Positions 7,014-42,042 of a stretch of 64,000 nt of DNA are shown here, one piece after another (the stretch's first letter is position 1; each line of letters opens with the position of its first letter). Source of the stretch: a virus (lineage: Duplodnaviria > Caudoviricetes); the IMG/VR virus record IMGVR_UViG_3300028048_000060, positions 90,737 through 154,736 of that record, one strand, 5' to 3'. The notes beneath the pieces were generated by a model. That model saw only the letters and a program-made list of their open reading frames with translations. It had not been told where the DNA came from and searched no databases. A program made the position numbers and the translations under genes.

Positions 7014-7095
7014 CAGTTTCTTCACTGAAACATCAGAACATCTTAAATTGTTTAAATGCTCTTTTATAGAGCATTTTTTATTATAAGGATTTAAA

Positions 7096-7326
7096 ATGAT
7101 TACATTAGGACAACTTTTACCATCCTTAGACCCTGTGTCTAAGATTATCATTACCAACGAAGAAGGTTATCCAGTTCCTTTAACTAAGGAAGACACTGTT
7201 ACAACCTTTAGTCCTCGTTGCTTTGATGAAATAGACACATCTTATATTATTCCACTCTTAGACTCTAAGGTTAAGACTATATCACATCATTCTGAGTTTC
7301 TAGAGATTATTCTAAAAAAATTTTAG
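7096..7326 (+). CDS. hypothetical protein
   Basis: ORF with AAGGA RBS. Confidence 0.5.
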   Translation: MITLGQLLPSLDPVSKIIITNEEGYPVPLTKEDTVTTFSPRCFDEIDTSYIIPLLDSKVKTISHHSEFLEIILKKF

Positions 7327-7344
7327 TTTAAGACAAATTTTTGC

Positions 7345-7373
7345 TTGATATTTAACTCAAAATACATTATAAT
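7345..7373 (+). promoter_or_regulatory. sigma70-type early promoter
   Basis: TTGATA-17-TATAAT; the spacer and leader are conserved at 19151, 27957 and 42070. Confidence 0.8.
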
Positions 7374-7409
7374 AATAAACATAAAGAGAAAAGAAGAAGG
7401 AAAAAAGAT

Positions 7410-24073: not shown

Positions 24074-24199
24074 TTGGTCTACTCTTTTTTAATTTATTTA
24101 TATTTTGGGTGAACTACATCATATCATTTTCAGTAATAAATACAAAAAAGATATGTTCCATTAGGTTCATATATGAATAGTTGTTAATGGAGTAGATGA

Positions 24200-25796: not shown

Positions 25797-25898
25797 TTTT
25801 TAATTCATTTAAAACTCTTTTAAAAAAATGTGTTTTATTATATAATAGGGCATATGTGACCTACATCTTCCCTAAAGGATAGATGCTTCCATTTACAA

Positions 25899-27224
25899 TC
25901 AAATATTTGATTGTAGTTCAGACATCTGAGACTTGTGCGTAGCACAAAAATCCAGATGTTTGAAGGTTTTATACTCCGAGAGGTCCTTCCCAAGAGTTTG
26001 ATGCGATTTGTTGTAAACAACAGTCTCACCAAAATTTAATAAGTTCAAGGCAGAGTTATAATCTCTATCAATGATATTACCGCATCCACACTCAAGTGTA
26101 CGTTTGGTAACATCTTTCATTTCTGAATGAATTTTTCCACATTTACAACAAATTTGAGAACTTGGGTAATATTTGTCTGCAAGGACAAAATGACACCCAA
26201 ATTTCTCAGAATTTTCTTCTAACTTTTTAAGGAAATAATTCCATTGTAACAAACTTACTGACTTGCCATGATTACCGCCTTTGGTGGAAGTTTTGGCATC
26301 TAAGTAAGATGTATGCCTAGACATTTCTTTGAGGTCCAAATTCTCAACAACTATCAATTCATTGTGTAAACACAATTCTCTTGATAACTTGTTGAGATAG
26401 TCCTTCTGAATGTTATGAATTGTTTCGTAGAGTTTGTTACGTTTCATCGTGATACGATGGACTTTAACAGAGGTACGAAACTTTTTCTTAGATTTGGTTC
26501 TCATCTTTGAAATAGTTTCATTTAAGGAATTAATCTTCTTTTGAAGTGATTCCATCTTAGACCTCTTTGTTGAGAACTTTGGTGCCTTCGCACCAAAACT
26601 ATCAACGAACAGGTCTTTCAAGGAAAAATCTAAACCAATATGACCATTATCTACACGTTCTTCGTAAACCTTGTCGACTTCGACAAGTAATGAGACTTTG
26701 TAGACCCCAGTTTTAGTTCTTCTGATAGTTCCATACTTAATCTTAGAACTATCTTTTAGAAAAATAGGTTCAATATATTTATTTAAAAATCTAACCTTTC
26801 CAATCTTCGGTATCTTTACGTATGACTTTGACGCATCGTCAGGATTATACGAAATATTCGTGATTGAGGAAGGATAAGAGTCATTATGATCTTTCTTACA
26901 TTTGAAACGTCTTAGTCCTACGGGCTGGCCTTTCAATCTCTTATTTCTATTGATTTTATTAGTTTGAACGAAGTTCAATCTTATAGCAGAACATGCCCAA
27001 CTTTCCATATCTTTCAGGAATTCGTGTTTCTCACGTAATTCTGGAAATGATGGATAATTTGGCATTCTATCTTCTTTAATACAATTCAAATATTCTTCAA
27101 TAAGTTTATTCTTAAACCATCTTGATATGTCTAAAGATTTTGATAATTTAATTTTGTCAGAAGATGTCGGGTTTAGTGTTAACACTAGACCTCGATATGT
27201 TCTTTCTGAAATTATTTTATCCAT
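25899..27224 (-). CDS. tnpB: TnpB RNA-guided nuclease (family copy A)
   Basis: HIGLDF, IVVENL, YPSSQICCKC..CGC and DRDYNSALN; right-end hairpin ending GGTCAC at 25856. Confidence 0.92.
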   Translation of the reverse strand: MDKIISERTYRGLVLTLNPTSSDKIKLSKSLDISRWFKNKLIEEYLNCIKEDRMPNYPSFPELREKHEFLKDMESWACSAIRLNFVQTNKINRNKRLKGQPVGLRRFKCKKDHNDSYPSSITNISYNPDDASKSYVKIPKIGKVRFLNKYIEPIFLKDSSKIKYGTIRRTKTGVYKVSLLVEVDKVYEERVDNGHIGLDFSLKDLFVDSFGAKAPKFSTKRSKMESLQKKINSLNETISKMRTKSKKKFRTSVKVHRITMKRNKLYETIHNIQKDYLNKLSRELCLHNELIVVENLDLKEMSRHTSYLDAKTSTKGGNHGKSVSLLQWNYFLKKLEENSEKFGCHFVLADKYYPSSQICCKCGKIHSEMKDVTKRTLECGCGNIIDRDYNSALNLLNFGETVVYNKSHQTLGKDLSEYKTFKHLDFCATHKSQMSELQSNI

Positions 27225-27412
27225 CTTTAGAATACCTCTTAGTACGTTTTCTCTAAATTTATTTATATTTTAAAAATCAGGAAGTTACGTTTATAAACGA
27301 GATTTTCCTTTGCTTTTTAATAAATTTTTAATATAATTAAAAGAAAGTACAACGTCTGAATATGCTTGCCTTAGGCAAGCATATTTAGAAATATTTGACT
27401 AAGGAGACTTAA

Positions 27413-27889
27413 ATGGATAGAATTACAAAAGTAACATCTTCATCTGATTCTAAGGAAACTTACTTTATTACTGGGCTTCCTGACTTTGTGGCCACTTTGT
27501 CTAAAGAAGACCTTTGGAGTAAGGAACGTTATATCGTAGAAATAACAGAATTCACTACTCAGGCATACGAAGTGTTTGATACTTATGATGAAGCTAAGAA
27601 GTTCTTAGACGAGTTCTTAGAAAAGAGAATTAAGACTGCTGAGGAACACTGTGACTTTGAAGAACCATCATATACAGTCAAAATTAAAGATGTTGGACTT
27701 TCGAGGGATTGGGAAGAATCACTTTATCCACCTTTACCACCATTACCACCTTTACCACAGTGTTGTGAAGACCCTATCCTGGAGCACCACAGAGAATCAG
27801 GATTTCCAACAGAAGAACCCTTTCTTTCAGATAGTGAAAAGTTAGATAAAATTATAAGTCTTTTAGAAGAAATTAAGAATAAATTATAA
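27413..27889 (+). CDS. hypothetical protein with PPL repeats
   Basis: AAGGAG RBS; YPPLPPLPPLPQCC. Confidence 0.6.
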   Translation: MDRITKVTSSSDSKETYFITGLPDFVATLSKEDLWSKERYIVEITEFTTQAYEVFDTYDEAKKFLDEFLEKRIKTAEEHCDFEEPSYTVKIKDVGLSRDWEESLYPPLPPLPPLPQCCEDPILEHHRESGFPTEEPFLSDSEKLDKIISLLEEIKNKL

Positions 27890-27956
27890 GATTTATATAC
27901 TTCTAAAGGGTCTCCAAAAAGACCCTTTATTTTTTGTCTTAAACTAAAATTTTTGC

Positions 27957-27985
27957 TTGATCTTAAACTCAAAATACATTATAAT
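27957..27985 (+). promoter_or_regulatory. sigma70-type early promoter
   Basis: TTGATC-17-TATAAT, same family as 7345. Confidence 0.8.
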
Positions 27986-28011
27986 AAACATAAAGAGAAA
28001 GGAGTAAGGAA

Positions 28012-28401
28012 ATGGAATATAAAAACTGTGATATAGATTTTTACACTCTCACTGTAGGTGAACTATTGAATTTAGACAATAAGGAAGAACAGCTTATTGT
28101 CAATGGATTTATTTTCTTTCCAAATACTTATATAAGAGAGTTAAAAACTGCTGAATTGCAGTTGTTATTTGATGAAGATACATTTGAAGATGTCATTGAG
28201 AAATACCCTTATCATAAACATAAGGAGGTTAGGTACGATGTTCAGCAAAGACTTAATCAATATGCAAGGAATGGTAGCTGTGTAATGTATATAAACAAAG
28301 CATATGTTATACTCATTACTCGTGATAGTGTACATCATATTGAAAGAGCCAATTTTGATAGTGCTGTTAGAACACTTACAGGAAGTGAAATAATAGTATA
28401 A
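28012..28401 (+). CDS. early hypothetical protein
   Basis: After the early promoter; AAGGA RBS. Confidence 0.6.
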   Translation: MEYKNCDIDFYTLTVGELLNLDNKEEQLIVNGFIFFPNTYIRELKTAELQLLFDEDTFEDVIEKYPYHKHKEVRYDVQQRLNQYARNGSCVMYINKAYVILITRDSVHHIERANFDSAVRTLTGSEIIV

Positions 28402-28456
28402 CACTGGAATTCTTTCTTTTGATTTTGAAGATGGAATACTTATAAGGAGAAAAGAT

Positions 28457-28807
28457 ATGGAAATGAAACTTACTGATTTTTTAGAAATGCTTGAGTACAG
28501 TGAATATATCGTCTTAGAAGATAAAAATGGAAAATTTCTCTTAGAGTTCTTTAGCAATGACTTCTTCTCAGAAGAACTGAGATATTCAGATGAATTAGCT
28601 ATAAAAGGGTTTGTTATTACATCATTTTCAATCGAAATAAGCTACTATGGTTCTTATCATGGACCTCTTATTAAGTGTATAGTTGACTTAGAAAAGTCAG
28701 AAAAACCAAAACTGAATGATACTGTTAATAAAGAAGAGTTTTCAAAGATGCTTAGAAATATCTATGGTGACGAACTCTATGACGAAATTTCAAAGGCAAT
28801 GGAATAA
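28457..28807 (+). CDS. early hypothetical protein
   Basis: AAGGAGAAAAGATATG leader shared with other early genes. Confidence 0.6.
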   Translation: MEMKLTDFLEMLEYSEYIVLEDKNGKFLLEFFSNDFFSEELRYSDELAIKGFVITSFSIEISYYGSYHGPLIKCIVDLEKSEKPKLNDTVNKEEFSKMLRNIYGDELYDEISKAME

Positions 28808-28842
28808 ATCCTTGTTATATATAGAATAAAAAGGAATTAAAA

Positions 28843-29286
28843 ATGAAACTTAAAATACAAGGAATTATCAAACAGAGTTCAGTTGATGGTGAGGGAATTA
28901 GATATGTTATATTCTGCCAGGGATGCCCTCACCATTGTAAAGGATGTCATAATCCTGAAACTTGGAATCCTGACAAAGGATACTTTATTGAAACAGATGA
29001 TATCTTAGAAGAAATCAAGTATGACCCTTTGTTAGATGGAGTTACTTTTAGCGGAGGCGAACCCTTCCTTCAGCAAAAACCTTTAATCGACTTAGCTAAG
29101 AAGATAAAGAATTTGGGTTTAGATATTTGGTGCTATACTGGATATGAGTATGAGGAGGTCAAAGACTCTCCTCTTATAAAATCAGGGCTTATAGATGTCT
29201 TAGTAGACGGAAAGTACATCCAGGAACTAAGAACTCTTGGAGGATTTAAAGGTTCTTCTAATCAAAGAATTATTAGACTTAACTAA
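28843..29286 (+). CDS. nrdG: anaerobic ribonucleotide reductase activating enzyme
   Basis: VDGEGIR, GCPHHCKGCHNP (CxxxCxxC), GVTFSGGEP, DVLVDG and GSSNQR. Confidence 0.95.
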   Translation: MKLKIQGIIKQSSVDGEGIRYVIFCQGCPHHCKGCHNPETWNPDKGYFIETDDILEEIKYDPLLDGVTFSGGEPFLQQKPLIDLAKKIKNLGLDIWCYTGYEYEEVKDSPLIKSGLIDVLVDGKYIQELRTLGGFKGSSNQRIIRLN

Positions 29287-29519
29287 TCTGTTGAAGACTC
29301 ATTTAAGTATCTAAGGAATCTAACTAAAAACATATTCTCAACTAAGATGTTGATGAACTCGTCGTCAATTTCACTAACAGGGATGGTTCCTTTTAGACTG
29401 TCTATATAGGACCATCCTTGCCATCTTGGGAAGTCTCTTCTCTTTATCCCTTTAAAGTTACAATAAAACTTTTGGTCCTTCTCAAACCATTTTTCTAAAA
29501 AATCTGTAAATCCTTCCAT
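29283..29519 (-). CDS. hypothetical protein
   Basis: Downstream of 29533 in the same orientation; C-terminal YLNES. Confidence 0.45.
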   Translation of the reverse strand: MEGFTDFLEKWFEKDQKFYCNFKGIKRRDFPRWQGWSYIDSLKGTIPVSEIDDEFINILVENMFLVRFLRYLNESSTD

Positions 29520-29532
29520 TAAGGTATTTCCT

Positions 29533-29901
29533 TTATTTAAGTCTTTGCGTGTTAATCATACAAAGTTCTAAGACTCTCTTAATTGCATCTATGTCTCTTA
29601 TAATAGAAGTCATCTCAGATGAACTTCTTCCATCTATTGTTGACATTCTGTTCTCCAGTTGATTTAGTCTTAACTGAAGATTATTCAAAGAGTCTTCAAT
29701 GTCGTTGCTAGAGTCTGAGATAGAGTCTAAGGTTCTTTTAATGGAATCTATCGACTCTAAGTTCTGCTCCTGAGACTTTTGAGTTAACTCTGTAAACTGT
29801 TCGTACTTTTTATATAGGTAAACGCAAGCAATCCCCAGAAATATTATAATTACTGGAGATGTGAAACCTGATGTTAAGGCAAATTCTATTAACTGGTCCA
29901 T
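29533..29901 (-). CDS. single-TM coiled-coil membrane protein (possible lysis protein)
   Basis: N-terminal TM helix followed by a heptad coiled coil. Confidence 0.5.
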   Translation of the reverse strand: MDQLIEFALTSGFTSPVIIIFLGIACVYLYKKYEQFTELTQKSQEQNLESIDSIKRTLDSISDSSNDIEDSLNNLQLRLNQLENRMSTIDGRSSSEMTSIIRDIDAIKRVLELCMINTQRLK

Positions 29902-30012
29902 TTTTATTATTCTTCTTACCTTAAAAAATCATATTTATTTATGTTAGGGAAATTTAAATAATTAGTGTTTTATATAAATAATATAAACAAAATAAAACAA
30001 GGAGAAACTTAA

Positions 30013-30405
30013 ATGAAATTTAAATCATTAAATGAGTCTGTTGAAGCAGAACTTCCAAAGAGTTTAGAGAATTTTATCTCTAAGAGAAATGGAAAGGTTA
30101 GAGAGTTTAGTGTAAAGAAATACATCTCTAAGAATGGAAACGAAGATAGACTTGTTTACATTGATATTTATTTTGGAAATGACATCTCTCTTTTCTCTGA
30201 TTTTGAACCATTATCAGACAAGGATAATATCAAGTTAGAACTTAGAAATTCTGGGTGGGGAAGTGCTGGAAGTTTCACAGACCCTAAGAGAATTAAAGAA
30301 GTCTTAGATAATGTCCAGGAAAAGGTAGATACTGCGAGAAATGCTCTTGAAGTATTCCAAGAACTCAAAGAATACAAATTCGAAGACTTAATGATAGTTA
30401 AGTGA
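30013..30405 (+). CDS. probable internal head protein
   Basis: MKFKSLNE-S N-terminus; TATAAATA upstream; AAGGAG RBS. Confidence 0.55.
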   Translation: MKFKSLNESVEAELPKSLENFISKRNGKVREFSVKKYISKNGNEDRLVYIDIYFGNDISLFSDFEPLSDKDNIKLELRNSGWGSAGSFTDPKRIKEVLDNVQEKVDTARNALEVFQELKEYKFEDLMIVK

Positions 30406-30520
30406 TTAGACGTTTATAATTTCTAAAAGACTTAAAATCCTGAGTATAAGTCTCTTCTTAGGAAGTTCTTTAGCCTGCTGTGGTTACTCAGTTTACTAAT
30501 TGCCGAAAGGGATTAAAAAT

Positions 30521-31138
30521 ATGACATTATGGTATACTAAAAATTACTCACCAACTCCACACTTTCCATTTGAGTCTTTTCTAAGAAATCCTGATAAGAT
30601 TCTCTTTGACCCAATGACTCAGGAAACACCATCAAAGTATCCTTTAACTAACATTGGTTATGCTAATAACACTTTAATCTTTGAAGTTGCCTTAGCGGGA
30701 TTTAAAAAGGAAAACATTAAAGTCAGTTATGTAGGAAATGTAATCACTGTTAATGCTAAGTGGAATAAAGACTCAGAAGAGTCTCAAACTTGTCCACAGT
30801 GTGAAGCAAATGGATGTGATGGGTGTTGTAAGTGTGAGTGTGACTGCTGTAAAAAAGAAATAAAGTACATTATGAAGAACATCTCTACCAAAGATGCTTG
30901 TAGAAAGTTTACTCTTCCTGACAAGTACTTAGGTGGAAGTCTTAAATGGAAGTTTGTTGATGGTCTGCTAACTATCGCTGTGTACGTTAACGATGTTGAT
31001 TACTCAGTTGAACCTTCAGGAGACGACGAAGAATTGATTCCTGACTGTGGTTGCGGATGTAGCCAGGGTTGTTTATGTCATTCTGAAACAGAAGAACAGT
31101 CTGACACACAGGAACCAACTGAACCTCAGAATCCATAA
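30521..31138 (+). CDS. small heat-shock protein (Hsp20) with Cys-rich insertions
   Basis: KYPLTNI..FEVALAGFKKENIKV...RKFTLP...FVDGLLTI alpha-crystallin motifs; ATG 30521 preferred over TTG 30500. Confidence 0.85.
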   Translation: MTLWYTKNYSPTPHFPFESFLRNPDKILFDPMTQETPSKYPLTNIGYANNTLIFEVALAGFKKENIKVSYVGNVITVNAKWNKDSEESQTCPQCEANGCDGCCKCECDCCKKEIKYIMKNISTKDACRKFTLPDKYLGGSLKWKFVDGLLTIAVYVNDVDYSVEPSGDDEELIPDCGCGCSQGCLCHSETEEQSDTQEPTEPQNP

Positions 31139-31240
31139 AAGACTTTATTTTTTAAGTGATTTGCATTAAAATATAAGCTAGATATAACCATCTAGCTTAT
31201 TTTTAAAATATAAATATATGTATAGTTAAAAGGAATCTAA

Positions 31241-32554
31241 ATGAAACAAAAGAATCAATCTAATAAATCCATCAGAGGTTTAGTTCTTGAACTAAGACCT
31301 GATGATAGTCAGAAAATTCTTTTGTCTGAACATTTAGATGGTTGTAGATTCATATATAATCAATATGTTGAAGAGTATTTAACTTCTATCAAAGAGGATA
31401 GACTCCCTAATTATAAAGATTATAAAGACTTACGTGCAGAGCACGAATTCCTTAAAGATTTATATTCATGGACTCTTCAACAAGTTAAGTTTCAATTCAT
31501 TCAAACTAATAGAATCAATAGATCTAAAAGATCAAATGGTCAGTCCATAGGATTAATTAAATTTAGATCTAAAAAGTCTCACAGTGATTATTTTTATACC
31601 AATAATGTAAAATTATCATATAATTGTGACTGTAAGTCAGAATCATATGTAAACATTCCAAAAATAGGTAAGATTAAATTTTTACGTAATGGTATTAAAT
31701 CTAAGTTATTAGAAGGTAAAATTAAGTCAGCAGTAGTTAGAAGAACCAAAACTGGAGTTTACAAGATTTCGTTACTTGTTGAGGTCAACAAAGTTTACGA
31801 AAATCGTGTAGATAATGGTCATGTAGGTTTAGATTTTTCCCTAAAAGACTTATTTGTCGATAGTTTTGGTGCGAAGGCACCAGAGTTCTTAACAAAGAGG
31901 TCTAAGATGGAATTATTTCAGAATAAGATTAATTCCTTAAATGAAACTATTTCAAAGATGAGAACCAAATCTGAGAAAAAGTCTCGTACCTCTGTTAAAG
32001 TTCATCGTTTAACGATGAAACGTAACAAACTCTTCGAAAGAATTCATAACATTCAGAAGGACTATATCAACAAGTTATCAAGAGATTTGTGTAAACACAA
32101 TGAATTGATAGTTGTCGAAAATTTAGACCTCAAAGAAATGTCTAGGCATACATCTTACTTAGATGCCAAAACTTCCACCAAGGGTGGAAATCATGGAAAG
32201 TCAGTAAGTTTGTTACAATGGAGTTATTTCCTTAAAAAGTTAGAAGAAAATGCTGAGAAATTTGGGTGTCATCTTGTCCTTGCGGACAAATATTACCCAA
32301 GTTCTCAAATTTGTTCTAAGTGTGGAAAGATTCATAGTGAAATGAAGGATGTTACCAAACGTACACTTGAGTGTGAATGTGGTAATATCATTGATAGAGA
32401 TTATAACTCTGCAATTAATATTTTAAAATTCGGTGAGTCTGTTGTTTACAACAAATCTTACCAAACTCTTGGGAAGGAACTCTCGGAGTATAAATCTTTT
32501 AAGTGTTTAGATTTTTCAAAATCAAAAACATTTAAACTACAGTCAGATCTCTGA
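31241..32554 (+). CDS. tnpB: TnpB RNA-guided nuclease (family copy B)
   Basis: HVGLDF, IVVENL, CSKC..CEC and DRDYNSAIN; right-end hairpin gctattgacctttagatcaatagc then agttcat ending at 32597. Confidence 0.92.
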   Translation: MKQKNQSNKSIRGLVLELRPDDSQKILLSEHLDGCRFIYNQYVEEYLTSIKEDRLPNYKDYKDLRAEHEFLKDLYSWTLQQVKFQFIQTNRINRSKRSNGQSIGLIKFRSKKSHSDYFYTNNVKLSYNCDCKSESYVNIPKIGKIKFLRNGIKSKLLEGKIKSAVVRRTKTGVYKISLLVEVNKVYENRVDNGHVGLDFSLKDLFVDSFGAKAPEFLTKRSKMELFQNKINSLNETISKMRTKSEKKSRTSVKVHRLTMKRNKLFERIHNIQKDYINKLSRDLCKHNELIVVENLDLKEMSRHTSYLDAKTSTKGGNHGKSVSLLQWSYFLKKLEENAEKFGCHLVLADKYYPSSQICSKCGKIHSEMKDVTKRTLECECGNIIDRDYNSAINILKFGESVVYNKSYQTLGKELSEYKSFKCLDFSKSKTFKLQSDL

Positions 32555-32583
32555 TTGTAAATAGAAGCTATTGACCTTTAGAT

Positions 32584-32730
32584 CAATAGCAGTTCATGCT
32601 TTATTTTACTTCTGACCAACACTTTGGTCATACTAACATTATTAAGTACACTAAAGGCCAATAACAGTTCATGCTTTATTTTACTTCTGACCAACACTTT
32701 GGTCATACTAACATTATTAAGTACACTAAA
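32584..32730 (+). repeat. 72-bp direct duplication (period 75) of the tnpB right-end tip plus the first 20 codons of the phosphoesterase
   Basis: 32584-32655 versus 32659-32730, one mismatch. Confidence 0.9.
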
Positions 32731-33243
32731 CGACCATTTGAGTATAGTCAAACAGGAATGATAGACTGTGCAAGGTTTATGTACGATTCTTATCAGCAGA
32801 TAGTCAAAGAAGATGATGTAGTAGTATTCTTAGGTGACTTAGCATTGATTAGAAGTTGTGACAAAGACATTTTCTCTGATATGTTTAGGAGTTTAAAGGG
32901 AACTAAACTTTTTCTTTGGGGAAATCACGACTCATTTTCTGAATCATATTATAAGAAATCAGGATTTAAAGACATAAGAGACTATCACATTGTAGGTCAG
33001 CACTTTATATGTCATTATCCTTGCGTGAGTTCAGGAACTCCTAAGGAAAGACTTTGTAAGAATGCCTTTGACCAGTCAGAGTGTTCCGAGATTTGGCATG
33101 GCCATATCCATGAAAAACACAGTCCTACATTTGATGGGATTAAAAGACACAATATGTGCGTAGACTATGCTCCAAATGCTTTTAAACCTGTTTTAATAAC
33201 AGATCCTGTTCTTCAAGAATATTTTTATCAGTTTAAGGATTAA
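32671..33243 (+). CDS. calcineurin-like metallophosphoesterase
   Basis: SDQHFGH, LGD, GNHD, CHYP and HGHIH motifs. Confidence 0.9.
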   Translation: MLYFTSDQHFGHTNIIKYTKRPFEYSQTGMIDCARFMYDSYQQIVKEDDVVVFLGDLALIRSCDKDIFSDMFRSLKGTKLFLWGNHDSFSESYYKKSGFKDIRDYHIVGQHFICHYPCVSSGTPKERLCKNAFDQSECSEIWHGHIHEKHSPTFDGIKRHNMCVDYAPNAFKPVLITDPVLQEYFYQFKD

Positions 33244-33335
33244 GGATAAGAAAAGGAGTCTTTAAAGACCATAAAAAAGGAGTCTCTAAAGACTCCTTTT
33301 AAATTAATCTCTATTTTATATAAAGACTTTGAAAA

Positions 33336-35288
33336 TTAATTTTGGAAGATTTTAAAACACTTCTTAGATGGTCCAGATGAACTAAATTGTAAAATTGATT
33401 TAAAACACTTAAATCCATCAAACTTCCAGGAATCGCCTAAACTTTCTCTTAGAAGTAACTCTATATTATCTGTGAGAACATTTTGTTCTAAGATAAACTC
33501 TTCGTTAATTAGATTAGCTAGTTTCAGTTCTAAGCTTCTTGGAATCTTAACTGTTTTGTTTCCTTCACTAAGACTGAAATCCTGTTCTTTTGCTTTTCTT
33601 CTTAGAATGTCAGAACCCAGTGGAAGAGTTACTGGAGCGATGTTAGCTGAAGTTGTTCCTAAGGCACAGTCTCCACAGTCTCCGCCTCCACATCCTTCTC
33701 CATCTTCTTCTAAGTAATCAACAAACAGTTTGCCTTGGCTAAGACCTTCTCCTAGACTAATTTCATCATAAGTTGCTAAAATCTCAGGATACAAACTATG
33801 AATCTCCTTAGGAGTGTTCTTTTCAAAAAATTCTTTATCTCTTATATTAGAAATGACTTTTGTTGCACTTATAGCATCTGAGTCTCTTGGATACTCTCTA
33901 ACATCTAATCCTAAGACCTTTTCTACTTGTTTTACATAGTCAAAGTATCTGTCACTTCCACAGAACACTGTGTTGATGTTAAATGGAGACTTAGACAACA
34001 TTCCTAAGATGTTTCCTGAATTGTGTTCAATGATTTCAATCTTATTCTTAAATGTTTTCTCTAACATCTTGTATCTAAGGTCTCTTGTTGCTTTAGTATC
34101 CTTAGATGAAACTAAGCAAACTAGGACTTTGTCGTACTCTTTTAATGCTTTGTTGATAACATTACAGTGTCCATTTGTAAGAACTCTAAACTTTCCTAAG
34201 ATTAAACACCCATTATTTCCCTTTAATGCCTTTAAGATTAAAATTTTAGCATTATGATGGATATCATCTTTTATCTGTAACTCGTTCTTCTTAGAATGAG
34301 ATATGTTAAAGTCTGTTTTCTCTAATAACTCAGATAGTTTTTTAAGTCTTAGATTAATTGGACCTCTTGTAATCTTAGAAGCAATTTCCTTAGATGCTTT
34401 TATTACTTCCTTCCAGTATAGGTCTTCATCTTCAGGATTTTCTTCCATGAACTTTTGTTTGATTAGTCTTCGAGCATTTTGGTCTAACTGATATTCTTGC
34501 TGAACTTTGATTATCTTGTCATCGTACTTGATAACAACTCCTTCTTCTTTTCCACCATAAACGCTTTCTACTTCTAACAGTGTCTTGGTGATTGCTTTCC
34601 AAAGAACTTCAGGGTCTTCTGAATTAAAATCTTCTATGTTCTTATTATAAACATCTCTTAGAGAATTACTTAAAATTCCATTTTTAAAGTCTTTGAGATA
34701 ACCTTTAAACAGTTTGTTTGGAACATCTACTTGAAGGAGTTTAGCATACTCGTCTCTGTTCTCAGTCTCCATAGTCTTAGAGTTAGTCTTTAGAGTTCCA
34801 AATTTAATTTCATTTTCATTATAAGAGCACTGGCTATATCCAATCAGAACTAAGTGATGTGGATTAGTATAGTTAGAACTTAAAGTTGGTTTTCTCTGAA
34901 GAAATTCAATAGCAAACTCAGTGTTAATAGGAAGTCCTGTCTTTCCTAGATTACTAAAATGGTCTAAGACTAACTTATACTGAGAGATGCCTATAGACTT
35001 CTGAATGATTTGCTTAGAGTCCTGGAAGGAAAATTCCTCACTGTACATTATTTGGTTCTTATAGGCAATAATCCAGTCATTTAAGTCTCCATTGTCGTTT
35101 ATATGGAGAACAGTCAGCTTAGTTCCATCTGTTTTGTGTTCTATCTCTACTTCAGTGTTCAAAAGACTCTCAATATCTGACTTAGTCTTTATTACCTTAG
35201 AAGCACTAAGAATAGAGATATCTAGCTGGTCTTTAGACTCAAAGACCATATTTGGGTCTTTGCTTTCGAACAGTTGTTTTAGTCTCAC
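33336..35288 (-). CDS. ATP-dependent ligase-like domain fused to HIGH-family (cytidylyltransferase-like) nucleotidyltransferase
   Basis: Ligase motifs EHKTDG (I), IEF (III), EEGVVIK (IV) and IKV (V), then GKFRVLTNGH, GSDR and ISAT; GTG start; several (L/F)xE-S/G sites. Confidence 0.75.
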   Translation of the reverse strand: MRLKQLFESKDPNMVFESKDQLDISILSASKVIKTKSDIESLLNTEVEIEHKTDGTKLTVLHINDNGDLNDWIIAYKNQIMYSEEFSFQDSKQIIQKSIGISQYKLVLDHFSNLGKTGLPINTEFAIEFLQRKPTLSSNYTNPHHLVLIGYSQCSYNENEIKFGTLKTNSKTMETENRDEYAKLLQVDVPNKLFKGYLKDFKNGILSNSLRDVYNKNIEDFNSEDPEVLWKAITKTLLEVESVYGGKEEGVVIKYDDKIIKVQQEYQLDQNARRLIKQKFMEENPEDEDLYWKEVIKASKEIASKITRGPINLRLKKLSELLEKTDFNISHSKKNELQIKDDIHHNAKILILKALKGNNGCLILGKFRVLTNGHCNVINKALKEYDKVLVCLVSSKDTKATRDLRYKMLEKTFKNKIEIIEHNSGNILGMLSKSPFNINTVFCGSDRYFDYVKQVEKVLGLDVREYPRDSDAISATKVISNIRDKEFFEKNTPKEIHSLYPEILATYDEISLGEGLSQGKLFVDYLEEDGEGCGGGDCGDCALGTTSANIAPVTLPLGSDILRRKAKEQDFSLSEGNKTVKIPRSLELKLANLINEEFILEQNVLTDNIELLLRESLGDSWKFDGFKCFKSILQFSSSGPSKKCFKIFQN

Positions 35289-36482
35289 TTAGAAATCCTC
35301 CTGGATATAATTCTTCTTTGCTATATAGACTCTAAATGAATTTAATGACTCAGACAGGTTACACTTTCCATTAAGACCAAATGTTCCATAGTAATCAGAT
35401 AGCATTGGTTCGTGAAGGTCTTCTAAGCCAAAGAAATTGATAAAGTACTCATATCCTTTGAGTTTAACATCAAAATCCAATTCAGGATTGTTTCTTTCTA
35501 ATTCCTGTGTTCTTTCAGGATAAGACTCCCAAAGTAAGTCTAAGTATCTTCTGTGAACTCTGTCTATAAGTTCTTTAGGAGTATACTTTTGAATTAACTC
35601 ACAAAGACCAACAAATGACCAAAGTTTCTCTAACTCATCGTTTTCAGGGAGTCGGTCAAAGCACTCAACAAACACCTTAGTTAAGTCTTTTTCACCATTA
35701 AACTGGAATCTCTGTAACTGTTTGTATGTATTTTGCTCCTTTGACTGTGTTAAGACTTCTAACTGAGTACAGATTCCTAAGTTAACATCAAATATCTTTA
35801 AACGAGCAACCTTAGGTAACTGAGTATCACCTAACATAACAATTCCTAGAGGGTCTTCGTTCTTAGTTCCTACTAGTGCTCTTAGAAGATACTTGTGATG
35901 GACTGCTTTAATTCCTACCTTAGCATCTTTAAGATTACTTGAGTGTCCAAATCTTGCCCATTGAGATGGCTTTCCATCTATAAAATCTGTAAATTCAAAG
36001 TCTACTTGAGTATAGATTCTGAGTTCACCAATGCCATTTATTTTAAACAAGATATCAAACACACAGTTTATCTGAGACATAGTTGGCTTAAACTCAGGTT
36101 TATTACACCCTAAGTATTTTACATCAGGACTCAGTTCTTTTCCTTCTAAGTCTCTTAGAAAGTTATATAGTTCTAACTTCAGTTCTTTAGGAACAACAAT
36201 GTCTATATCACCAACAAATGGCTTAACCTCCTCAATTTCCTTTGAGTCATAGTTAGGACACATTATGTAAGATGTACTTCCATTAAAGAGATTTCCTGAG
36301 GTTATCTGTTCAGGTTCCCAAAGACGTTTCTTTGTTACTTTTTCAAATAACTGATTGAAATCAGTTACGAACTTGTTGACTTCCTGGACGAAATATGTTC
36401 GTCCAATTGTTTGTAGTGGGACCTTTTCAGCAAAGAACTGTTCCTTTGTGTTGTGGTCCATAACAATAGCATTTCCACCCAT
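35289..36482 (-). CDS. Pol-beta/PolX-superfamily nucleotidyltransferase-like protein, paralogue 2
   Basis: MGGN, FNGST...GDIDIV...QVDFEF and GIKAVHHKYLLRAL. Confidence 0.7.
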   Translation of the reverse strand: MGGNAIVMDHNTKEQFFAEKVPLQTIGRTYFVQEVNKFVTDFNQLFEKVTKKRLWEPEQITSGNLFNGSTSYIMCPNYDSKEIEEVKPFVGDIDIVVPKELKLELYNFLRDLEGKELSPDVKYLGCNKPEFKPTMSQINCVFDILFKINGIGELRIYTQVDFEFTDFIDGKPSQWARFGHSSNLKDAKVGIKAVHHKYLLRALVGTKNEDPLGIVMLGDTQLPKVARLKIFDVNLGICTQLEVLTQSKEQNTYKQLQRFQFNGEKDLTKVFVECFDRLPENDELEKLWSFVGLCELIQKYTPKELIDRVHRRYLDLLWESYPERTQELERNNPELDFDVKLKGYEYFINFFGLEDLHEPMLSDYYGTFGLNGKCNLSESLNSFRVYIAKKNYIQEDF

Positions 36483-36484
36483 AA

Positions 36485-37489
36485 TTATTCCTTATAGAAA
36501 AACTTAAAATAATCTTCAAATCCTAAAATGTCTATAAACACTTTATAAGCATTGTATTTTAATTCTTTGTCTTCTTCTGGATTCTTAGATACTTTGTGAC
36601 TCACAAGCATCTCACAGAACTTAGAATGAATCTCATTAACTTTGTCCCTTGTAAAAGACTCTTTTATCAGTTCACAGACCCCAATAAAAGACCAAAACTT
36701 ATCATAATTATTTAAGTCTTTTTTATTAAACAAATACTTATAAAATCTTCTTACATTTGTGCTTGATGGATTTTTGTTCTTAATAAAAACTTGGAGACCA
36801 CAGACCTTTACAAATTCTTTCTTTGTCTTATTATATAAAGGCTTATATTTTATCTTAAAACCATCTACTACACTGAACACTGCAAACTTAGGAATTTTGT
36901 CATCTTTAACTAAATTTCCATTATAGTCAGCAATTAAGATATTCTGAGATGTAGTATATGTAGTAGCACCTATTAAGAATTTGTGAAAGACTGCTTTGAT
37001 TCCATACTGAGCATCTAAGAAACTAGAACTATGACTGAATCTAGCAAACTCAGTTGGTTCTAAGTCTTTAAATTCAACAAACTCAAAGTCTATCTGACAG
37101 TTTACTCCAACATTAAACACTGAATGAATTTGGTCTATCTTTTCATTATAGACAAAACCTTTAAACAATTTTGAGTCTAAGTTAGAAAGATACTTTATTA
37201 GTGGTTCTTTATAGACTTTGTCTATCATTACGTCTACGTCACCAATAGACTTTTTAACGCCCAAGATATCTGAGTCTGATATTTCAGGATTAAACACATA
37301 CTGAGAACTCCCATTAAAGATAATTCCAGTCTCGATGGAACTTTGTGTCCAACAGTTTAATTCTAAGTTTATTTCATCTAAGATACTTCTTACTTTAGAG
37401 CAAAAGTTAGAACGCCCAATTTTATCTAAAGGAACAGTCTGTGCTGTTGTTTTGATGTTGTCTTTAAAGACTCTGATGTTTCCGCCCAT
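36485..37489 (-). CDS. Pol-beta/PolX-superfamily nucleotidyltransferase-like protein, paralogue 3
   Basis: MGGN, FNGSS...GDVDVM...QIDFEF and GIKAVFHKFL; late promoter at 37517-37524 (-). Confidence 0.7.
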   Translation of the reverse strand: MGGNIRVFKDNIKTTAQTVPLDKIGRSNFCSKVRSILDEINLELNCWTQSSIETGIIFNGSSQYVFNPEISDSDILGVKKSIGDVDVMIDKVYKEPLIKYLSNLDSKLFKGFVYNEKIDQIHSVFNVGVNCQIDFEFVEFKDLEPTEFARFSHSSSFLDAQYGIKAVFHKFLIGATTYTTSQNILIADYNGNLVKDDKIPKFAVFSVVDGFKIKYKPLYNKTKKEFVKVCGLQVFIKNKNPSSTNVRRFYKYLFNKKDLNNYDKFWSFIGVCELIKESFTRDKVNEIHSKFCEMLVSHKVSKNPEEDKELKYNAYKVFIDILGFEDYFKFFYKE

Positions 37490-37627
37490 TTTTAAATACC
37501 TTTAAACTTTTATGTCTATTTATAGAAGCATATTAAAATAGGGTCTTTAAGGACATATAATGGTATTGATTCTTTTACAAATAAATTATATAATATTTTT
37601 AAATAAAAAAATCAAGGAGATTTAATA

Positions 37628-38947
37628 ATGGCTAAGAAAACTTCTGAGAAAAATATCAAGGGTTTAGTATTAATACTAAATCCCGTTCAGTCTCAGAAAA
37701 TTCTTCTTGATAAACATTTAAACAATACAAGATTCATCTATAACAAATATGTAGAAGAATACTTATCATGCTTAAAGGAAAATAGAATTCCAGATTATAA
37801 GGATTATCAGGATCTATGTGAGGAAAACGAATTCCTGAAAGGTCCTTATTCTTGGTCACTTCAACAAGTTAAATTTCAATTCATAAAAACAAATAAAATT
37901 AATAGAGCAAAGAGAGGAAAAGGACAGTCAGTGGGAATTGTTCATTTTCGGTCTAAAAAGGCTCATAAAGATTATTTTTATACTAATAATGTAAAACTTT
38001 CGTTCGACCATGATGATAAGTCAAAATCATACGTAAAATTGCCAATTATTGGTAAGATTCAAATTTTAAATAAGAATATAAAAGATGAATTATTAAAAGG
38101 TAAAATTAAGTCAGCAGTAGTTAGAAGAACCAAAACTGGAGTTTACAAGATTTCGTTACTTGTCGAGGTCGACAAGGTTTACGAAGAACGTGTAGATAAC
38201 AGTCATGTTGGTCTTGATTTTTCGCTAAGAGATTTCTTTGTTGATAGTTTTGGTGCGAAGACACCAGAGTTCTCAACAAAGAGGTCTAAGATGGAATCAC
38301 TTCAAAAGAAGATAGATTCCTTAAATGAAACTATTTCAAAGATGAGAACCAAATCTAAGAAAAAGTCTCGTACCTCTGTTAAAGTTCATCGTTTAACGAT
38401 GAAACGTAACAAACTCTTCGAAAGAATTCATAACATTCAGAAGGACTATATCAACAAGTTATCAAGAGATTTGTGTAAACACAATGAATTGATAGTTGTC
38501 GAAAATTTAGACCTCAAAGAAATGTCTAGGCATACATCTTACTTAGATGCCAAAACTTCCACCAAGGGTGGAAATCATGGAAAGTCAGTAAGTTTGTTAC
38601 AATGGAGTTATTTCCTTAAAAAGTTAGAAGAAAATGCTGAGAAATTTGGGTGTCATCTTGTCCTTGCGGACAAATATTACCCAAGTTCTCAAATTTGTTG
38701 TAAATGTGGAAAAATTCATTCAGAAATGAAAGATGTTACCAAACGTACACTACAGTGTGAATGTGGTAACAATTTAGATAGAGATCATAATTCAGCAATT
38801 AATATTTTAAAATTCGGTGAGTCTGTTGTCTACAACAAATCTTACCAAACTCTTGGGAAGGAACTCTCGGAGTATAAAACCTTCAAACATCTGGATTTTT
38901 GTGCTACGCACAAGTCTCAGATGTCTGAACTAGAATCAAATATTTGA
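37628..38947 (+). CDS. tnpB: TnpB RNA-guided nuclease (family copy C)
   Basis: HVGLDF, IVVENL and DRDHNSAIN; right-end hairpin then aagttcat ending at 38990; promoter TTGATT-17-TATAAT at 37566-37594. Confidence 0.92.
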   Translation: MAKKTSEKNIKGLVLILNPVQSQKILLDKHLNNTRFIYNKYVEEYLSCLKENRIPDYKDYQDLCEENEFLKGPYSWSLQQVKFQFIKTNKINRAKRGKGQSVGIVHFRSKKAHKDYFYTNNVKLSFDHDDKSKSYVKLPIIGKIQILNKNIKDELLKGKIKSAVVRRTKTGVYKISLLVEVDKVYEERVDNSHVGLDFSLRDFFVDSFGAKTPEFSTKRSKMESLQKKIDSLNETISKMRTKSKKKSRTSVKVHRLTMKRNKLFERIHNIQKDYINKLSRDLCKHNELIVVENLDLKEMSRHTSYLDAKTSTKGGNHGKSVSLLQWSYFLKKLEENAEKFGCHLVLADKYYPSSQICCKCGKIHSEMKDVTKRTLQCECGNNLDRDHNSAINILKFGESVVYNKSYQTLGKELSEYKTFKHLDFCATHKSQMSELESNI

Positions 38948-39059
38948 TTCTAAATGGGACCAGATTTTCTAAAGAATATCTGAAGTTCATATTGATATCT
39001 AACTTAAATTATTATAAAATAAAATCAAAGAACTTATTTAGAAGGAATTAGGAACTAAA

Positions 39060-40418
39060 ATGTTTGAATCTATTATTTTGAAGAGTCTCTTAGGAGATGG
39101 TGAATTTTTTAACAAAACCATTGGAATTTTAAAATCAGATTATTTTAAGTCATTTGGAGACCAACAGGTTTTTAAGCTAATCAAAGAATATTACTCTAAG
39201 TACCATCAAAAACCACAGAATGTATCTTTAGTAGCAATGGTTAAAGATGTTCCAAATGAAGAAACTAGAAAGTCTATTATAGAATCATTAAAGAAAGTTT
39301 CAGAAACAGAACTTAATACTAATACTCAGTTTATGTGTGACGAGACCATCAAGTTCATTAAAAGTGCTATCTTCTATAAAGGATTAGAAGTTGGAAGTGA
39401 TGGTTTGATGAACAAAGACGAGTCTAAGATGAAGAAAGCACAGTCTATTATGGAAGAAATGAACAAGGTTCAAATAGACTCTGACTTAGGTTTAGACTTT
39501 GACGATTTAGACAAACAGATAGAATACTACTCTAAGAGAGAATTTGGAATCAAAACTCAGCATAAGTCTTTAAACAAAAGATTAGGAGCAGGATTCCTTC
39601 CAGGAACTTTAAATGTGATTTTAGCCGCACAGGGTGTAGGTAAGTCTCTTTTGATGTGTGACTTAATCTCAGGAATGCTCTTAGATAATAAAAACATCCT
39701 GTTAGTATCCTTAGAAATGTCTCAGAATGAGATGTTAAAGAGAATTCAGTCTAATGTCTTTAATATAGATGTTAATTCATTTAGAGACCTTTCTAAGACT
39801 CCAGGTGAACTTCAGGGATTAGAGAGACCTTTTACAACTAAAGAACAGGTCATTCAGGAATATGACAAAGTCAAGGCATCTGGAAAGTGTGGTAAACTGT
39901 TCATTAAAGAGTATCCTGCTGGGTCAATGGGAGCATCAATTCTTCAGGACTTAGTAGATAAATTCTATACTGAAAAGAATATAAAGTTTGATATAATCTT
40001 TATAGACTATCTTGGAATTATGAAATCTGACCTTTTAAGTCCTAATTCAGGTTTGTATAGCTATGTTAAAAGCATAGGTGAAGAAGTAAGAGCATTTGCT
40101 GTGAGAAACTCTGTTCCAGTGGTTACATGTTCTCAACTGAATAGGTGTTTTTCAGTCTTTACCAATGTTATAACAGACAAAGGAATTAAACAAGTTAAAG
40201 ATTTAAAGATCGGCGATAAGTTATTGACAACAAATGGAAACCATAATACAATAAAGAATATAACAGAACCTGAAGTTAAGAGAGCGTTTAAAATCAGGAC
40301 AAAATCAGGAAAGGAGATTATTGTCTCAGAGGATCACAGAATTCCAACTGAAAAAGGTCTGATGTCAATTAGGGTGGGATTAAAGAAAGGAGCTAAGGTT
40401 CACATAAATGAAAAATAA
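39060..40418 (+). CDS. gp41: replicative helicase gp41 N-extein (362 aa) plus N-terminal split-intein half (from Cys at 40146)
   Basis: AAQGVGKS, SLEM, IKEYP, IDYLGI and SQLNR, then intein block A CFSVFT and block B SEDHRIPT; stop at 40418. Confidence 0.92.
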   Translation: MFESIILKSLLGDGEFFNKTIGILKSDYFKSFGDQQVFKLIKEYYSKYHQKPQNVSLVAMVKDVPNEETRKSIIESLKKVSETELNTNTQFMCDETIKFIKSAIFYKGLEVGSDGLMNKDESKMKKAQSIMEEMNKVQIDSDLGLDFDDLDKQIEYYSKREFGIKTQHKSLNKRLGAGFLPGTLNVILAAQGVGKSLLMCDLISGMLLDNKNILLVSLEMSQNEMLKRIQSNVFNIDVNSFRDLSKTPGELQGLERPFTTKEQVIQEYDKVKASGKCGKLFIKEYPAGSMGASILQDLVDKFYTEKNIKFDIIFIDYLGIMKSDLLSPNSGLYSYVKSIGEEVRAFAVRNSVPVVTCSQLNRCFSVFTNVITDKGIKQVKDLKIGDKLLTTNGNHNTIKNITEPEVKRAFKIRTKSGKEIIVSEDHRIPTEKGLMSIRVGLKKGAKVHINEK

Positions 40419-42042
40419 TTTTGTTTATCTTATTTGGAATAAAATAACTCATAAAAAGTATATTGGAGTAAAGTCTTCAGATTTAGAACCGTATGATGTA
40501 ATTGGTAAGAAGTATTTTTCATCTTCAAGAGATAAAGATTTTATAAACGAACAGAAGGAACATCCTGAAAGATTTAAATATAGAGTTTTAAAAAATTTTA
40601 AAAGTAGAAAAGAAGCTATAGAATTAGAGTGTCTTCTACATAAAAAATATGATGTAGCTTGTAATGAAGAATTCTATAATAAAGCACGTCAAACATCAGT
40701 AGGTTTTGACACAGGAGGTGTAGAATATTCAGATGAAAGAAAGCGACAGATTTCAAAATTTGTGAGAGAAAATCTTATCAAACATCCCGAAATCAGAGAC
40801 AAAATTTCAAAGAAATCAAAGGAATGGTGGGACGCACATCCTGAAGCGAAAGAAAGACTAATAAAATTTAATTCGGAAAGAATCCATACGGAAGAGGAAA
40901 AGGAAAAATCAAGATTATCACGTATTGACCCAAAAACAGGGAAAAGCAAATATTCAGGTAAAAATGCATATTTTTATGGAAAGAAACATTCTGAAGAATA
41001 CAAAAATAAAATGTCTGAGTTAATGACTGGAAGAACATTATCTGAAGAAACTAAGAGAAAGCTTTCTGAGAGTCATAAGGGAAAGACACATACAGAGGAG
41101 ACAAAGAGAAAACTCTCCAAGATTGGAAAAGGTAAAGCCAAACCTGAAGGATTTTCAGAGAAAATTTCACAGGCATTGAAGGGAAGAATTATCTCTGAAA
41201 ATGCTAAACAAAAATTATCAGAAAAGGCAAAACAACGAATAAAAGACCATCAGTGTGAGTTTTGTGGAAAGTTCTTTACTAAGCAGGCATATAACCAACA
41301 TCACGGAGAAAAATGTATTTTAAATCCTGAAAGAATCAAAAAAGACAGTCCTTTAAAAGGAAGGAAACGACCAAAAGACTGTTTTTGCGAAGTTTGCCAA
41401 AAATGGTTAGATAAAGGAAATTTTATGAGACATCATAATGGGAAGTGTGATAAGATGAAGATTTTAGACTTTAATGATTACTTGGGTGTTCTTAAATCTC
41501 AGGAACTCTCAGAAACTTTAGACTTTAATGATGAAATAGAGAGCATCGAAGAAGTTGAACCAGTTGAAATGGTTGATATTTCCTTGGATGGAAATAATGT
41601 GTTTTATGCTAACGACATCCTAATTCATAACTGTGCCATCAACAAAACAGATGGAGTTGATAACAGTGCAGTTTCTGATTCATACGGTACAAATGCCACT
41701 GCTGACATGATGTTAATGATTTTACAAAATGAGCAGATGAAAACAAACTCAGAGGTAATCATTAAGATTACTAAGAACAGATACACTGGGATGACAGATT
41801 CTTTTATGATGAACATAGATTATCCAAAAATGAGATTTAAGGAAATTTTACAGAATGAAGGGCAACCTGAGAATGCTCTAACACAGTTTGCTACTACTCA
41901 GCAAAAAGCAGATGCTGAAAGAGAAATTAAAAGTGCTATTATAGAAGATAATAAAGCAAATAATCAAATTGCTAAGGAACATGACAAAAAAGTATCACAG
42001 GGATTATCCTCAGATGAACTAAATGCTCTTTTAGGGTTATAA
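40408..42042 (+). CDS. GIY-YIG/NUMOD3 homing endonuclease in frame with C-terminal intein half (ends HN at 41631) and gp41 C-extein (Cys+1 at 41632)
   Basis: FVY..YIG, YFSSS, FYN and HSEETKRKLS repeats; VDISLDGNNVFYANDILIHN|C; SDSYGT..TAD...KNRY. Confidence 0.9.
   Translation: MKNNFVYLIWNKITHKKYIGVKSSDLEPYDVIGKKYFSSSRDKDFINEQKEHPERFKYRVLKNFKSRKEAIELECLLHKKYDVACNEEFYNKARQTSVGFDTGGVEYSDERKRQISKFVRENLIKHPEIRDKISKKSKEWWDAHPEAKERLIKFNSERIHTEEEKEKSRLSRIDPKTGKSKYSGKNAYFYGKKHSEEYKNKMSELMTGRTLSEETKRKLSESHKGKTHTEETKRKLSKIGKGKAKPEGFSEKISQALKGRIISENAKQKLSEKAKQRIKDHQCEFCGKFFTKQAYNQHHGEKCILNPERIKKDSPLKGRKRPKDCFCEVCQKWLDKGNFMRHHNGKCDKMKILDFNDYLGVLKSQELSETLDFNDEIESIEEVEPVEMVDISLDGNNVFYANDILIHNCAINKTDGVDNSAVSDSYGTNATADMMLMILQNEQMKTNSEVIIKITKNRYTGMTDSFMMNIDYPKMRFKEILQNEGQPENALTQFATTQQKADAEREIKSAIIEDNKANNQIAKEHDKKVSQGLSSDELNALLGL

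Follow-up and report, generated by a model that had tools for sequence, protein, structure and literature searches.

TnpA-less TnpB elements of a rumen T4-like phage pair locus-specific 5' halves with a nuclease half shared through gene conversion

The phage and its tnpB elements

The 64,000-nt stretch of DNA analysed here, referred to as the window, derives from a T4-like myovirus of the cattle gut (rumen) whose 154.7-kb record, 68% complete, encodes structural genes of T4 type (portal, sheath, gp15). In a megablast search a 15-kb query matched none of the GenBank phages, and the protein matches among them all lie below 33% identity. Three intact TnpB genes are found within the window: tnpB A (25899..27224, minus strand, 441 aa), whose N-terminal half is of class II, with SWACSA and SYPS motifs, and tnpB B (31241..32554, plus strand, 437 aa) and tnpB C (37628..38947, plus strand, 439 aa), both with N-terminal halves of class I. 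A fourth intact paralogue, D, lies outside the window at genome positions 6218-7513, and two further tnpB genes within it, at 22835-24073 (minus) and 53519-54769 (plus), are unrelated to A-D. A, B and C all contain Pfam OrfB_IS605 and Cas12f1-like_TNB domains at scores above cut-off, a phmmer comparison with ISDra2 TnpB yields E ~6e-29, and the top Foldseek matches are TnpB structures, of which ISDra2 TnpB is the best. The D/E/D triad (D197, E292 and D386 in C numbering) is invariant in 24 family members and aligns with D191/E278/D361 of ISDra2, so that its retention in all three genes, remarked on in a first-pass annotation, is confirmed by alignment; the four zinc-finger cysteines are likewise invariant in the TnpB copies. 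Judged by domains, triad and zinc finger, each of A-D is predicted to be an intact, nuclease-competent enzyme. The Y1 transposase TnpA (PF01797) is absent from the 154.7-kb record and from the complete relative G001, in searches whose controls gave signal. A-D are paralogous TnpA-less elements of IS200/605 type, lacking the transposase that would make an IS200/IS605 element autonomous.

The predicted omegaRNA scaffold consists of the gene 3' end (the final ~145 nt of coding sequence) and ~42-45 nt past the stop codon, and its consensus fold (alignment A3, 15 copies) has 33 pairs, 10 of them with compensatory changes. Alignment and fold place it at 25857..26041 (minus) in A, 32421..32596 (plus) in B and 38805..38989 (plus) in C. 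Homology at the element right end stops at AGTTCA, or at GGTCA in A, and the flank DNA directly after this motif is the putative guide template. A Rfam scan of 34 kb gave no match, the omegaRNA being without a Rfam family, and an nhmmer profile found no solo scaffold of the A-D family in the phage's own genome; related phages carry mini-elements in which a left end, a promoter-like stretch and an A-D-type scaffold occur without tnpB. A late-promoter-like motif, TATAAATA, lies upstream of tnpB A (27260..27267, minus) and again upstream of tnpB B (31209-31216). There are 17 matches to it in the window against 7.5 expected, most of them directly upstream of genes, and its presence at A and B is counted as a likeness to T-even homing endonuclease genes.

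Diverged 5' halves and a mosaic 3' half

Comparison of A, B and C in 60-nt windows gives identities of 47-82% from gene nt 1 to 460 and of 80-100% from nt 520 to 1240, in agreement with the first-pass annotation, which had described near-identical RuvC halves joined to diverged N-terminal halves. Divergence along the genes is not uniform: the sliding-window and breakpoint analysis places the switch at nt ~465-520 (aa ~155-170), in the RRTKTGVYK region where it had been proposed. The 5' part, which in A occupies 26725..27224 (minus), is diverged and locus-specific; it corresponds to the WED/REC lobe, the TAM reader in ISDra2 TnpB, an assignment supported by the phmmer alignment and by Foldseek (TM 0.72 against the ISDra2 WED/REC lobe). 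The 3' part is mosaic, as had also been claimed. B and C are identical over 342 nt (31974..32315, plus, in B; 38358-38699 in C), a recent conversion tract of a length never reached when differences were shuffled (P<2e-4); A and C are identical over 83 nt and again over the last 69 nt of the gene, where the tails of B and D differ from those of A and C. In the C-half, 52 sites are informative; they are arranged in 10 runs, where shuffled data give 31.2+-3.3 (P<5e-5), and the same shuffling test found no such clustering in the N-half.

Further lines of evidence point to exchange between loci. Values of dS are 0.18-0.46 in the C-half and 0.72-1.39 in the N-half, a 2-6-fold reduction in the 3' part. 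Orthologous loci in other assemblies (L058, L059, L060) are 95-100% identical in flanks and N-half, and identity falls to 83-94% over nt 480-1280; the orthologue pairs are recovered with support 100/100 in the tree of the N-half, but the tree of the C-half is star-like and unresolved. Two near-identical strains differ in tnpB B at a cluster of 9 sites, and paralogue D is matched at 8 of them; in contig L066 this D-like patch spans 92 nt and lies inside the B=C tract. Among 3090 family pairs of similar N-half divergence, the 95th percentile of C-half identity is 0.874; the copies within the phage's own genome have values of 0.86-0.92, close to this mark or beyond it. All four signs expected of interlocus conversion are thus present: reduced dS, clustering of incompatible sites, conflict between trees, and orthologues that have diverged further than their flanks.

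Given that the C-half is more conserved across the whole family (mean identity 0.82, against 0.70 for the N-half), part of the contrast between the halves is ordinary constraint, and it could be supposed that there is no recombination at all, the C-half merely being under stronger purifying selection that includes synonymous constraint from the omegaRNA overlapping the last ~145 nt of the gene. However, this is extremely unlikely for three reasons: first, constraint cannot explain why orthologues differ more in the C-half than they do in flanks and N-half. Second, it leaves the runs of alternating partition and the dissolved orthologue pairs in the tree unaccounted for. Third, the most identical stretch, the B=C tract at gene nt 734-1075, falls outside the omegaRNA.

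It is also conceivable that the C-halves are chimeras made by short-read assemblers threading near-identical repeats. In run X1 a contig break interrupts every copy at nt ~500, with increased depth over the C-halves, and several ENA and Logan contigs terminate inside tnpB. Such breaks in every copy prevent independent phasing of the internal C-halves in the probable source run, so that some of the finer mosaic may reflect phasing by the assembler; those parts of the C-halves for which the run contigs hold no long pieces are not to be read as absent. Nevertheless, artefact is a very unlikely source of the pattern as a whole. An independent ENA assembly gives A exactly (contig L069, 100% identical over the gene), C over nt 1-871 and, one patch excepted, B from nt 735 on; four other samples yield full-length copies with both flanks; the identical tracts, other than that of B and C, are at most 90 nt, below the final k = 141 of those assemblies; and the contrast between N-half and C-half is independent of phasing.

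In summary, the 5' 470 nt of each gene, encoding the WED/REC lobe, is an old lineage tied to its insertion locus, and the ~850 nt that follow, encoding the last WED strands, RuvC, TNB and tail, form, together with the omegaRNA scaffold, a shared pool that has been overwritten repeatedly by ectopic gene conversion in patches of about 60-350 nt. The homogenisation of the catalytic half suggested at first reading is upheld, and it extends to the omegaRNA scaffold. The copies that recombine may lie in the same genome or in genomes that infect a cell together. That conversion stops near aa 155-167 would be due mainly to upstream divergence too high for homologous recombination; for copy A, an N-half fitted to a different TAM may be an additional reason.

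Insertion sites, probable homing and candidate TAM classes

Empty alleles at loci A, B and C were found in other cattle-gut metagenomes, so that element-plus and element-minus alleles coexist at each, as is expected of homing elements. Element A extends from left to right end over 25857..27385 (minus), as delimited by occupied and empty alleles (L070, L071), and has an imperfect direct repeat of 9 nt at its two ends; the empty allele may be a naive site or the product of a deletion between these repeats. Its putative guide template, the flank 3' of the right end (25837..25856, minus), matches the empty allele at 17/20 positions, the 3 mismatches all being among the first 10. The candidate TAM, TCTA (27386..27389, minus), lies directly 5' of target and left end and is present in empty and occupied alleles alike. 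Element B (31206..32596, plus) has a truncated left end without the LE hairpin and is delimited by empty alleles L063-L065, L067 and L068 and by a joint in run X3; the empty allele is found in most contigs carrying the identical neighbouring gene. TTTA lies directly 5' of the left end (31202..31205, plus), and the putative guide template (32597..32616, plus), a copy of the first bases of a 190-aa gene, is identical to the empty-allele sequence directly 3' of TTTA. This insertion is not seamless: 10 nt of the empty allele are gone and 75 nt are duplicated in tandem (32597..32671, plus; right-end tip and gene start), with the real ATG in the second copy, at 32671. In the occupied allele both target copies lack TTTA. 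Element C (37523..38989, plus) is a seamless insertion by comparison with a run X5 contig in which positions 37492 and 38989 are linked by 28 nt that represent a diverged form of the left flank; its candidate TAM, TTTA, is at 37519..37522 (plus), as placed by the empty allele, its putative guide template is at 38990..39009 (plus), and the target is preceded by TTTA only in the empty allele. The motif thus lies 5' of both the left end and the empty-site target, at a seamless junction in C and at slightly rearranged ones in A and B. No empty site was found for locus D, since look-ups with the flank genes of C and D gave only contigs ending inside tnpB or the occupied allele, and the motif of D, probably TTTA, therefore rests on left-end homology. 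Among other sources, the flanks of G001 are too diverged for empty sites, the DnaB-neighbour loci from IMG/VR have unrelated upstream DNA, and a JGI metagenome scan returned mostly loci already in the comparison set.

Given the empty alleles at A, B and C elsewhere, homing is likely. RNA-guided homing would account for the maintenance and spread of the elements: in a co-infecting relative, the empty allele would be recognised by TAM and target and cut by TnpB-omegaRNA, and recombinational repair of the cut would introduce the element. Occupied alleles would be spared because their TAM and target are separated. Ectopic gene conversion in TnpA-less elements, combined with RNA-guided homing, is the best explanation overall and is probably correct.

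The first-pass annotation had further proposed that the TAM-reading half diversifies, giving three re-targeted nucleases. The family does contain two N-half classes, which are set apart by coordinated differences in three segments that align with TAM contacts of ISDra2, class II, to which A belongs, differing at 4/7 contact-aligned positions. These residues were mapped from the phmmer alignment because the AlphaFold model is confident only for residues ~10-180 (mean pLDDT 59). The two class II insertions with readable flanks, A and P0049 at another locus, both lie behind TCTA (n=2, one left-end boundary being set by homology alone), and no further class II members were found in IMG/VR, while 17 more class II proteins are known from other contigs; class I and its mini-elements lie behind TTTA (10), ATTA (3) or CTTA (1). 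There thus appear to be two TAM classes, as far as flanking motifs and aligned residues can indicate, with A the only one of the four copies that would read another motif.

These classes, and an N-half dN/dS about twice that of the C-half, would suit active selection for diversified TAM-reading halves, each paralogue being re-targeted while conversion keeps one catalytic chassis. However, this reading is unlikely: B and C share TTTA by empty-site comparison, as D probably does, and are identical at 7/7 residues aligned to ISDra2 TAM contacts despite N-halves only 64-68% identical; N-half dN/dS stays at 0.23-0.54, and N-halves of orthologues elsewhere are 96-100% identical; and the TCTA class is represented by two insertions whose TAMs are themselves deduced from flanks. 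With dS of 0.7-1.4 among them, the N-halves are old locus-specific lineages under purifying selection and are not visibly diversifying. Of the proposed re-targeting, a difference in motif therefore stands for A but not between B and C. A tentative extension, possible though doubtful, is that the family is modular, with at least two WED/REC lobes, of TTTA and TCTA type, on one interchangeable RuvC/TNB-omegaRNA chassis with a fixed joint at aa 155-167, recombination in phage populations continually making working chimeras and selection at each locus retaining the TAM-matched lobe.

Among RNA-guided nucleases the TnpB proteins are the smallest, and the fixed TAM counts among the main restrictions on their application. 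Here, in a natural population, a nuclease and guide-scaffold module is traded freely between copies with different TAM-reading lobes, and this free exchange, with all copies intact under purifying selection, argues that, functionally, the lobes can be taken apart at a defined joint. If the modular reading is true, that joint is a ready-made, evolution-tested seam for TAM-specificity swaps in compact nucleases. Since alleles with and without the element are available together with guides and candidate TAMs, phage-to-phage RNA-guided homing is directly testable.

Comparison with known systems

The phage proteins share with ISDra2 TnpB (PDB 8H1J, 8EXA; PMC10097598) the WED-REC-RuvC-TNB order, the D/E/D triad, the CCCC zinc finger, an omegaRNA that overlaps the gene 3' end and whose guide derives from the DNA 3' of the right end, and a short motif 5' of the target. 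They differ in being only ~25% identical, in a 12-aa RuvC insert, in having no TnpA partner, in being phage-borne, in a putative TAM of TTTA or TCTA rather than TTGAT, and in the swapping of nuclease halves between paralogues. That swapping recalls concerted evolution with islands that escape interlocus gene conversion (PMC3728101, PMC3966223), where a homogenised segment likewise adjoins a persistently diverged one and where mosaic tracts and conflicting segment trees also occur; here, however, the escaping island is an entire functional lobe, and no description of such a pattern for TnpB was found in the literature searched.

Restorative homing driven by TnpB has been described (PMC10055086), as has a TnpA-independent 'transposon non-restorative homing' of plasmids and co-infecting phages (review PMC13565253). 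The latter resembles the present case in presence/absence polymorphism and in a guide that would be aimed at the empty allele, whereas homing is here predicted from population data and in a lytic-type phage. In behaviour, the TnpA-less TnpB/omegaRNA units resemble the free-standing homing endonucleases of T-even phages, Seg and Mob (PMC13565253), which are also single genes between conserved phage genes and vary in presence among relatives. Seg and Mob nevertheless read their target by protein, whereas phage TnpB would read it by RNA and TAM, and, unlike them, several TnpB paralogues of the phage share one exchangeable nuclease module.

The tnpB copies and their two halves

The 154.7-kb IMG/VR virus record, of which the window is bases 90737-154736, encodes a portal, tail sheath and gp15 of T4 type, indicating that the phage is a T4-like myovirus, and its DNA was found again in many cattle-gut metagenomes. 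Three tnpB ORFs lie in the window, A (25899-27224, minus strand), B (31241-32554, plus strand) and C (37628-38947, plus strand), each with the Pfam OrfB_IS605 and Cas12f1-like TNB domains, as the first-pass annotation had described; a fourth paralogue, D, lies outside it at genome positions 6218-7513. The RuvC triad, which aligns with D191/E278/D361 of ISDra2, and the zinc-finger cysteines are invariant, so that the catalytic D/E/D is indeed kept in all three. Two further tnpB genes in the window have only the fold in common with A-D or with each other: one of 412 aa (22835-24073, minus strand), no kin of A-D, and one of 416 aa (53519-54769, plus strand), from a third lineage unrelated to the others. 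Searches of the 154.7-kb record and of a complete relative of 158 kb gave no Y1 transposase. Three clustered tRNA genes (Cys-GCA, Gly-TCC and Gln-TTG) lie at 63388-63630.

Near-identical 3' halves and diverged N-terminal halves were borne out: in 60-nt windows, identity among A, B and C is 80-100% over nt 520-1240 of the gene and 47-82% over nt 1-460, and homology tails off approximately 45 nt past the stop codon. The genes are also mosaic, as had been proposed, in that B equals C over 342 nt without a mismatch, A and C have in common a tract of 83 nt and, at the 3' end of the gene, its final 69 nt, and B and D share a tail unlike that of A and C. The break falls at aa ~155-167, the last WED strands, and, given the domain limits of PMC10097598, the diverged part (the N-half) is thus the WED/REC lobe, with RuvC, TNB and tail making up the conserved part (the C-half). 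Where the structural model is confident, at the N-terminus, it matches the WED/REC-only chain 8EX9 with a TM of 0.72.

The proposal that recombination or gene conversion homogenises the catalytic half is strongly supported, as five independent lines agree. First, dS drops from 0.72-1.39 in codons 1-160 to 0.18-0.46 in codons 161-425; the C-halves thus have a much more recent common ancestry and are not just under tighter protein constraint. Second, the 52 parsimony-informative sites in the C-half of A-D form just 10 runs of alternating partitions (31.2±3.3 when shuffled, P<5e-5), and the same test found no such clustering in the N-half of A-D. Third, the orthologues found in other assemblies at the loci of A (L059), B (L060) and D (L058) are 95-100% identical to the phage in flanks and N-half, and just 83-94% over nt 480-1280, a valley that constraint cannot make and that replacement from paralogues can. 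Fourth, the maximum-likelihood tree of the N-half recovers every orthologue pair at 100/100 on long branches, whereas the C-halves of those sequences give an unresolved star, the only separation being from copies in a phage group that is more distantly related. Fifth, an ENA contig from an almost identical strain (L066; 4 differences across 3.5 kb of flank) departs from B in a cluster of 9 sites at nt 876-967, 8 of which have the state of paralogue D; this patch looks like a fresh conversion tract. In the 412-aa tnpB, comparison of near-identical strains gave 10 clustered differences at 23090-23198, for which the phage's own genome holds no donor.

An assembly artefact is an unlikely source of the mosaic as a whole, although some of its fine detail could be assembler phasing: in metagenome run X1 (~150x), Logan contigs end ~500 nt into every copy and restart at the omegaRNA end, so this run does not confirm the internal phasing. 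However, an independent ENA assembly reproduced A exactly and matched the first 871 nt of C and, except for the L066 patch, the part of B from nt 735 on, and four other samples yield full-length copies with both flanks. Furthermore, the half-versus-half contrast and the orthologue valley are independent of fine phasing.

The contrast between halves is family-wide, in a family of at least 289 metagenome proteins (E<=1e-40): A, B, C and D each have an N-half twin at 96-100% whose C-half is just ~90% identical. Given the family-wide mean identity of 0.82 in the C-half vs 0.70 in the N-half, ordinary constraint adds to the contrast as well. Lobe-wise concerted evolution of TnpB was not found described in the literature searched.

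TAM specificity

The first-pass annotation held that the TAM-reading halves are diversifying into a natural set of re-targeted nucleases. From readable flanks only, by way of empty sites or left-end homology, the inferred 5' motif is TTTA for B, C, D and seven related units, ATTA for three further related units and CTTA for one. The TAM contacts of ISDra2, Y52, S56, K76, F77, Q80, T123 and N124 (PMC10097598), fall in a phmmer alignment at Y57, Y60, S75, W76, Q79, Y118 and T119 of C; B is identical to C at 7/7 of these positions and D differs at one. The N-half class of A is a minority (20 of 123 sequences) that differs jointly in all three contact segments, and element A has TCTA directly 5', as has P0049, a protein of the same class at another locus and its only other member with a readable flank. 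A single common chassis may carry two TAM specificities, of which the second rests on two sites and a ~25%-identity alignment. Diversification of the N-half was not upheld: its dN/dS of 0.23-0.54 indicates purifying selection, and B, C and D, which have TTTA in common, have diverged in a way that has no link to the TAM. The re-targeted set shrinks to one candidate difference, A versus the rest.

OmegaRNA scaffold, mini-elements and promoter motif

The omegaRNA scaffold spans ~185 nt, from ~145 nt before the stop codon to AGTTCA (GGTCA in A), and the consensus fold of 15 aligned copies has 33 pairs, 10 of them with compensatory changes. The mosaic of the gene tails was seen again; in the scaffold it amounts to one stem that exists in alternative versions, long in A and C and shorter in B and D. 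Related phages (G001-G003) carry mini-elements (L032, L033, L034 with two copies, L035, L036, L037 and L040) in which the left-end hairpin and a promoter-like stretch are directly joined to the scaffold without tnpB, which marks the scaffold out as a module in its own right. The guide of every mini-element is its own flank, and these elements may be spare guides acting in trans or decay products.

Upstream of A and of B is the motif TATAAATA, which is T4's known late-promoter consensus; the window has more matches to it than expected (17 vs 7.5), mostly directly 5' of genes. The 412-aa tnpB has its own copy at 24095-24102. At 37517-37524, the TTTA of C and the next two bases are the reverse complement of the motif, which here lies upstream of a divergent 334-aa gene and is kept in both C alleles.

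Empty sites and proposed homing

Contigs with identical neighbouring genes but no element provide empty alleles of all three insertion sites: locus B is empty in most contigs carrying the identical neighbour gene and in run X3, locus A in L070 and L071, and locus C in one contig of run X5. The 412-aa tnpB is also missing from L070 and L071, and its presence is thus polymorphic too. In contigs of X3 and X5, 11-34 other letters stand in place of a 431-nt segment at 28013-28445 that holds a 129-aa ORF (28012-28401), which is another indel polymorphism.

Element C is a seamless insertion, in the order TTTA, element, target. The empty B allele has TTTA and then the target, which overlaps the start codon of a 190-aa gene; relative to it, the occupied allele has lost 10 nt of the site and its left end is truncated. 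A 75-nt tandem duplication at B (32597-32671) comprises the right-end tip and the first 60 nt of this 190-aa phosphoesterase gene, and puts AAAGG 13 nt 5' of the true ATG, the original ribosome-binding site having been removed by the insertion. An imperfect direct repeat of 9 nt flanks element A (27377-27385 and 25848-25856), and its left copy is identical to the empty allele and doubles as the 5' arm of the 11-bp left-end hairpin of A. Adjoining element C, at 39060-42042, a DnaB-like helicase ORF with a terminal Hint (intein) domain and an overlapping NUMOD3-motif ORF suggest an intein or homing-endonuclease region. The empty and occupied alleles fit a putative TnpA-independent homing of the kind outlined in PMC13565253.
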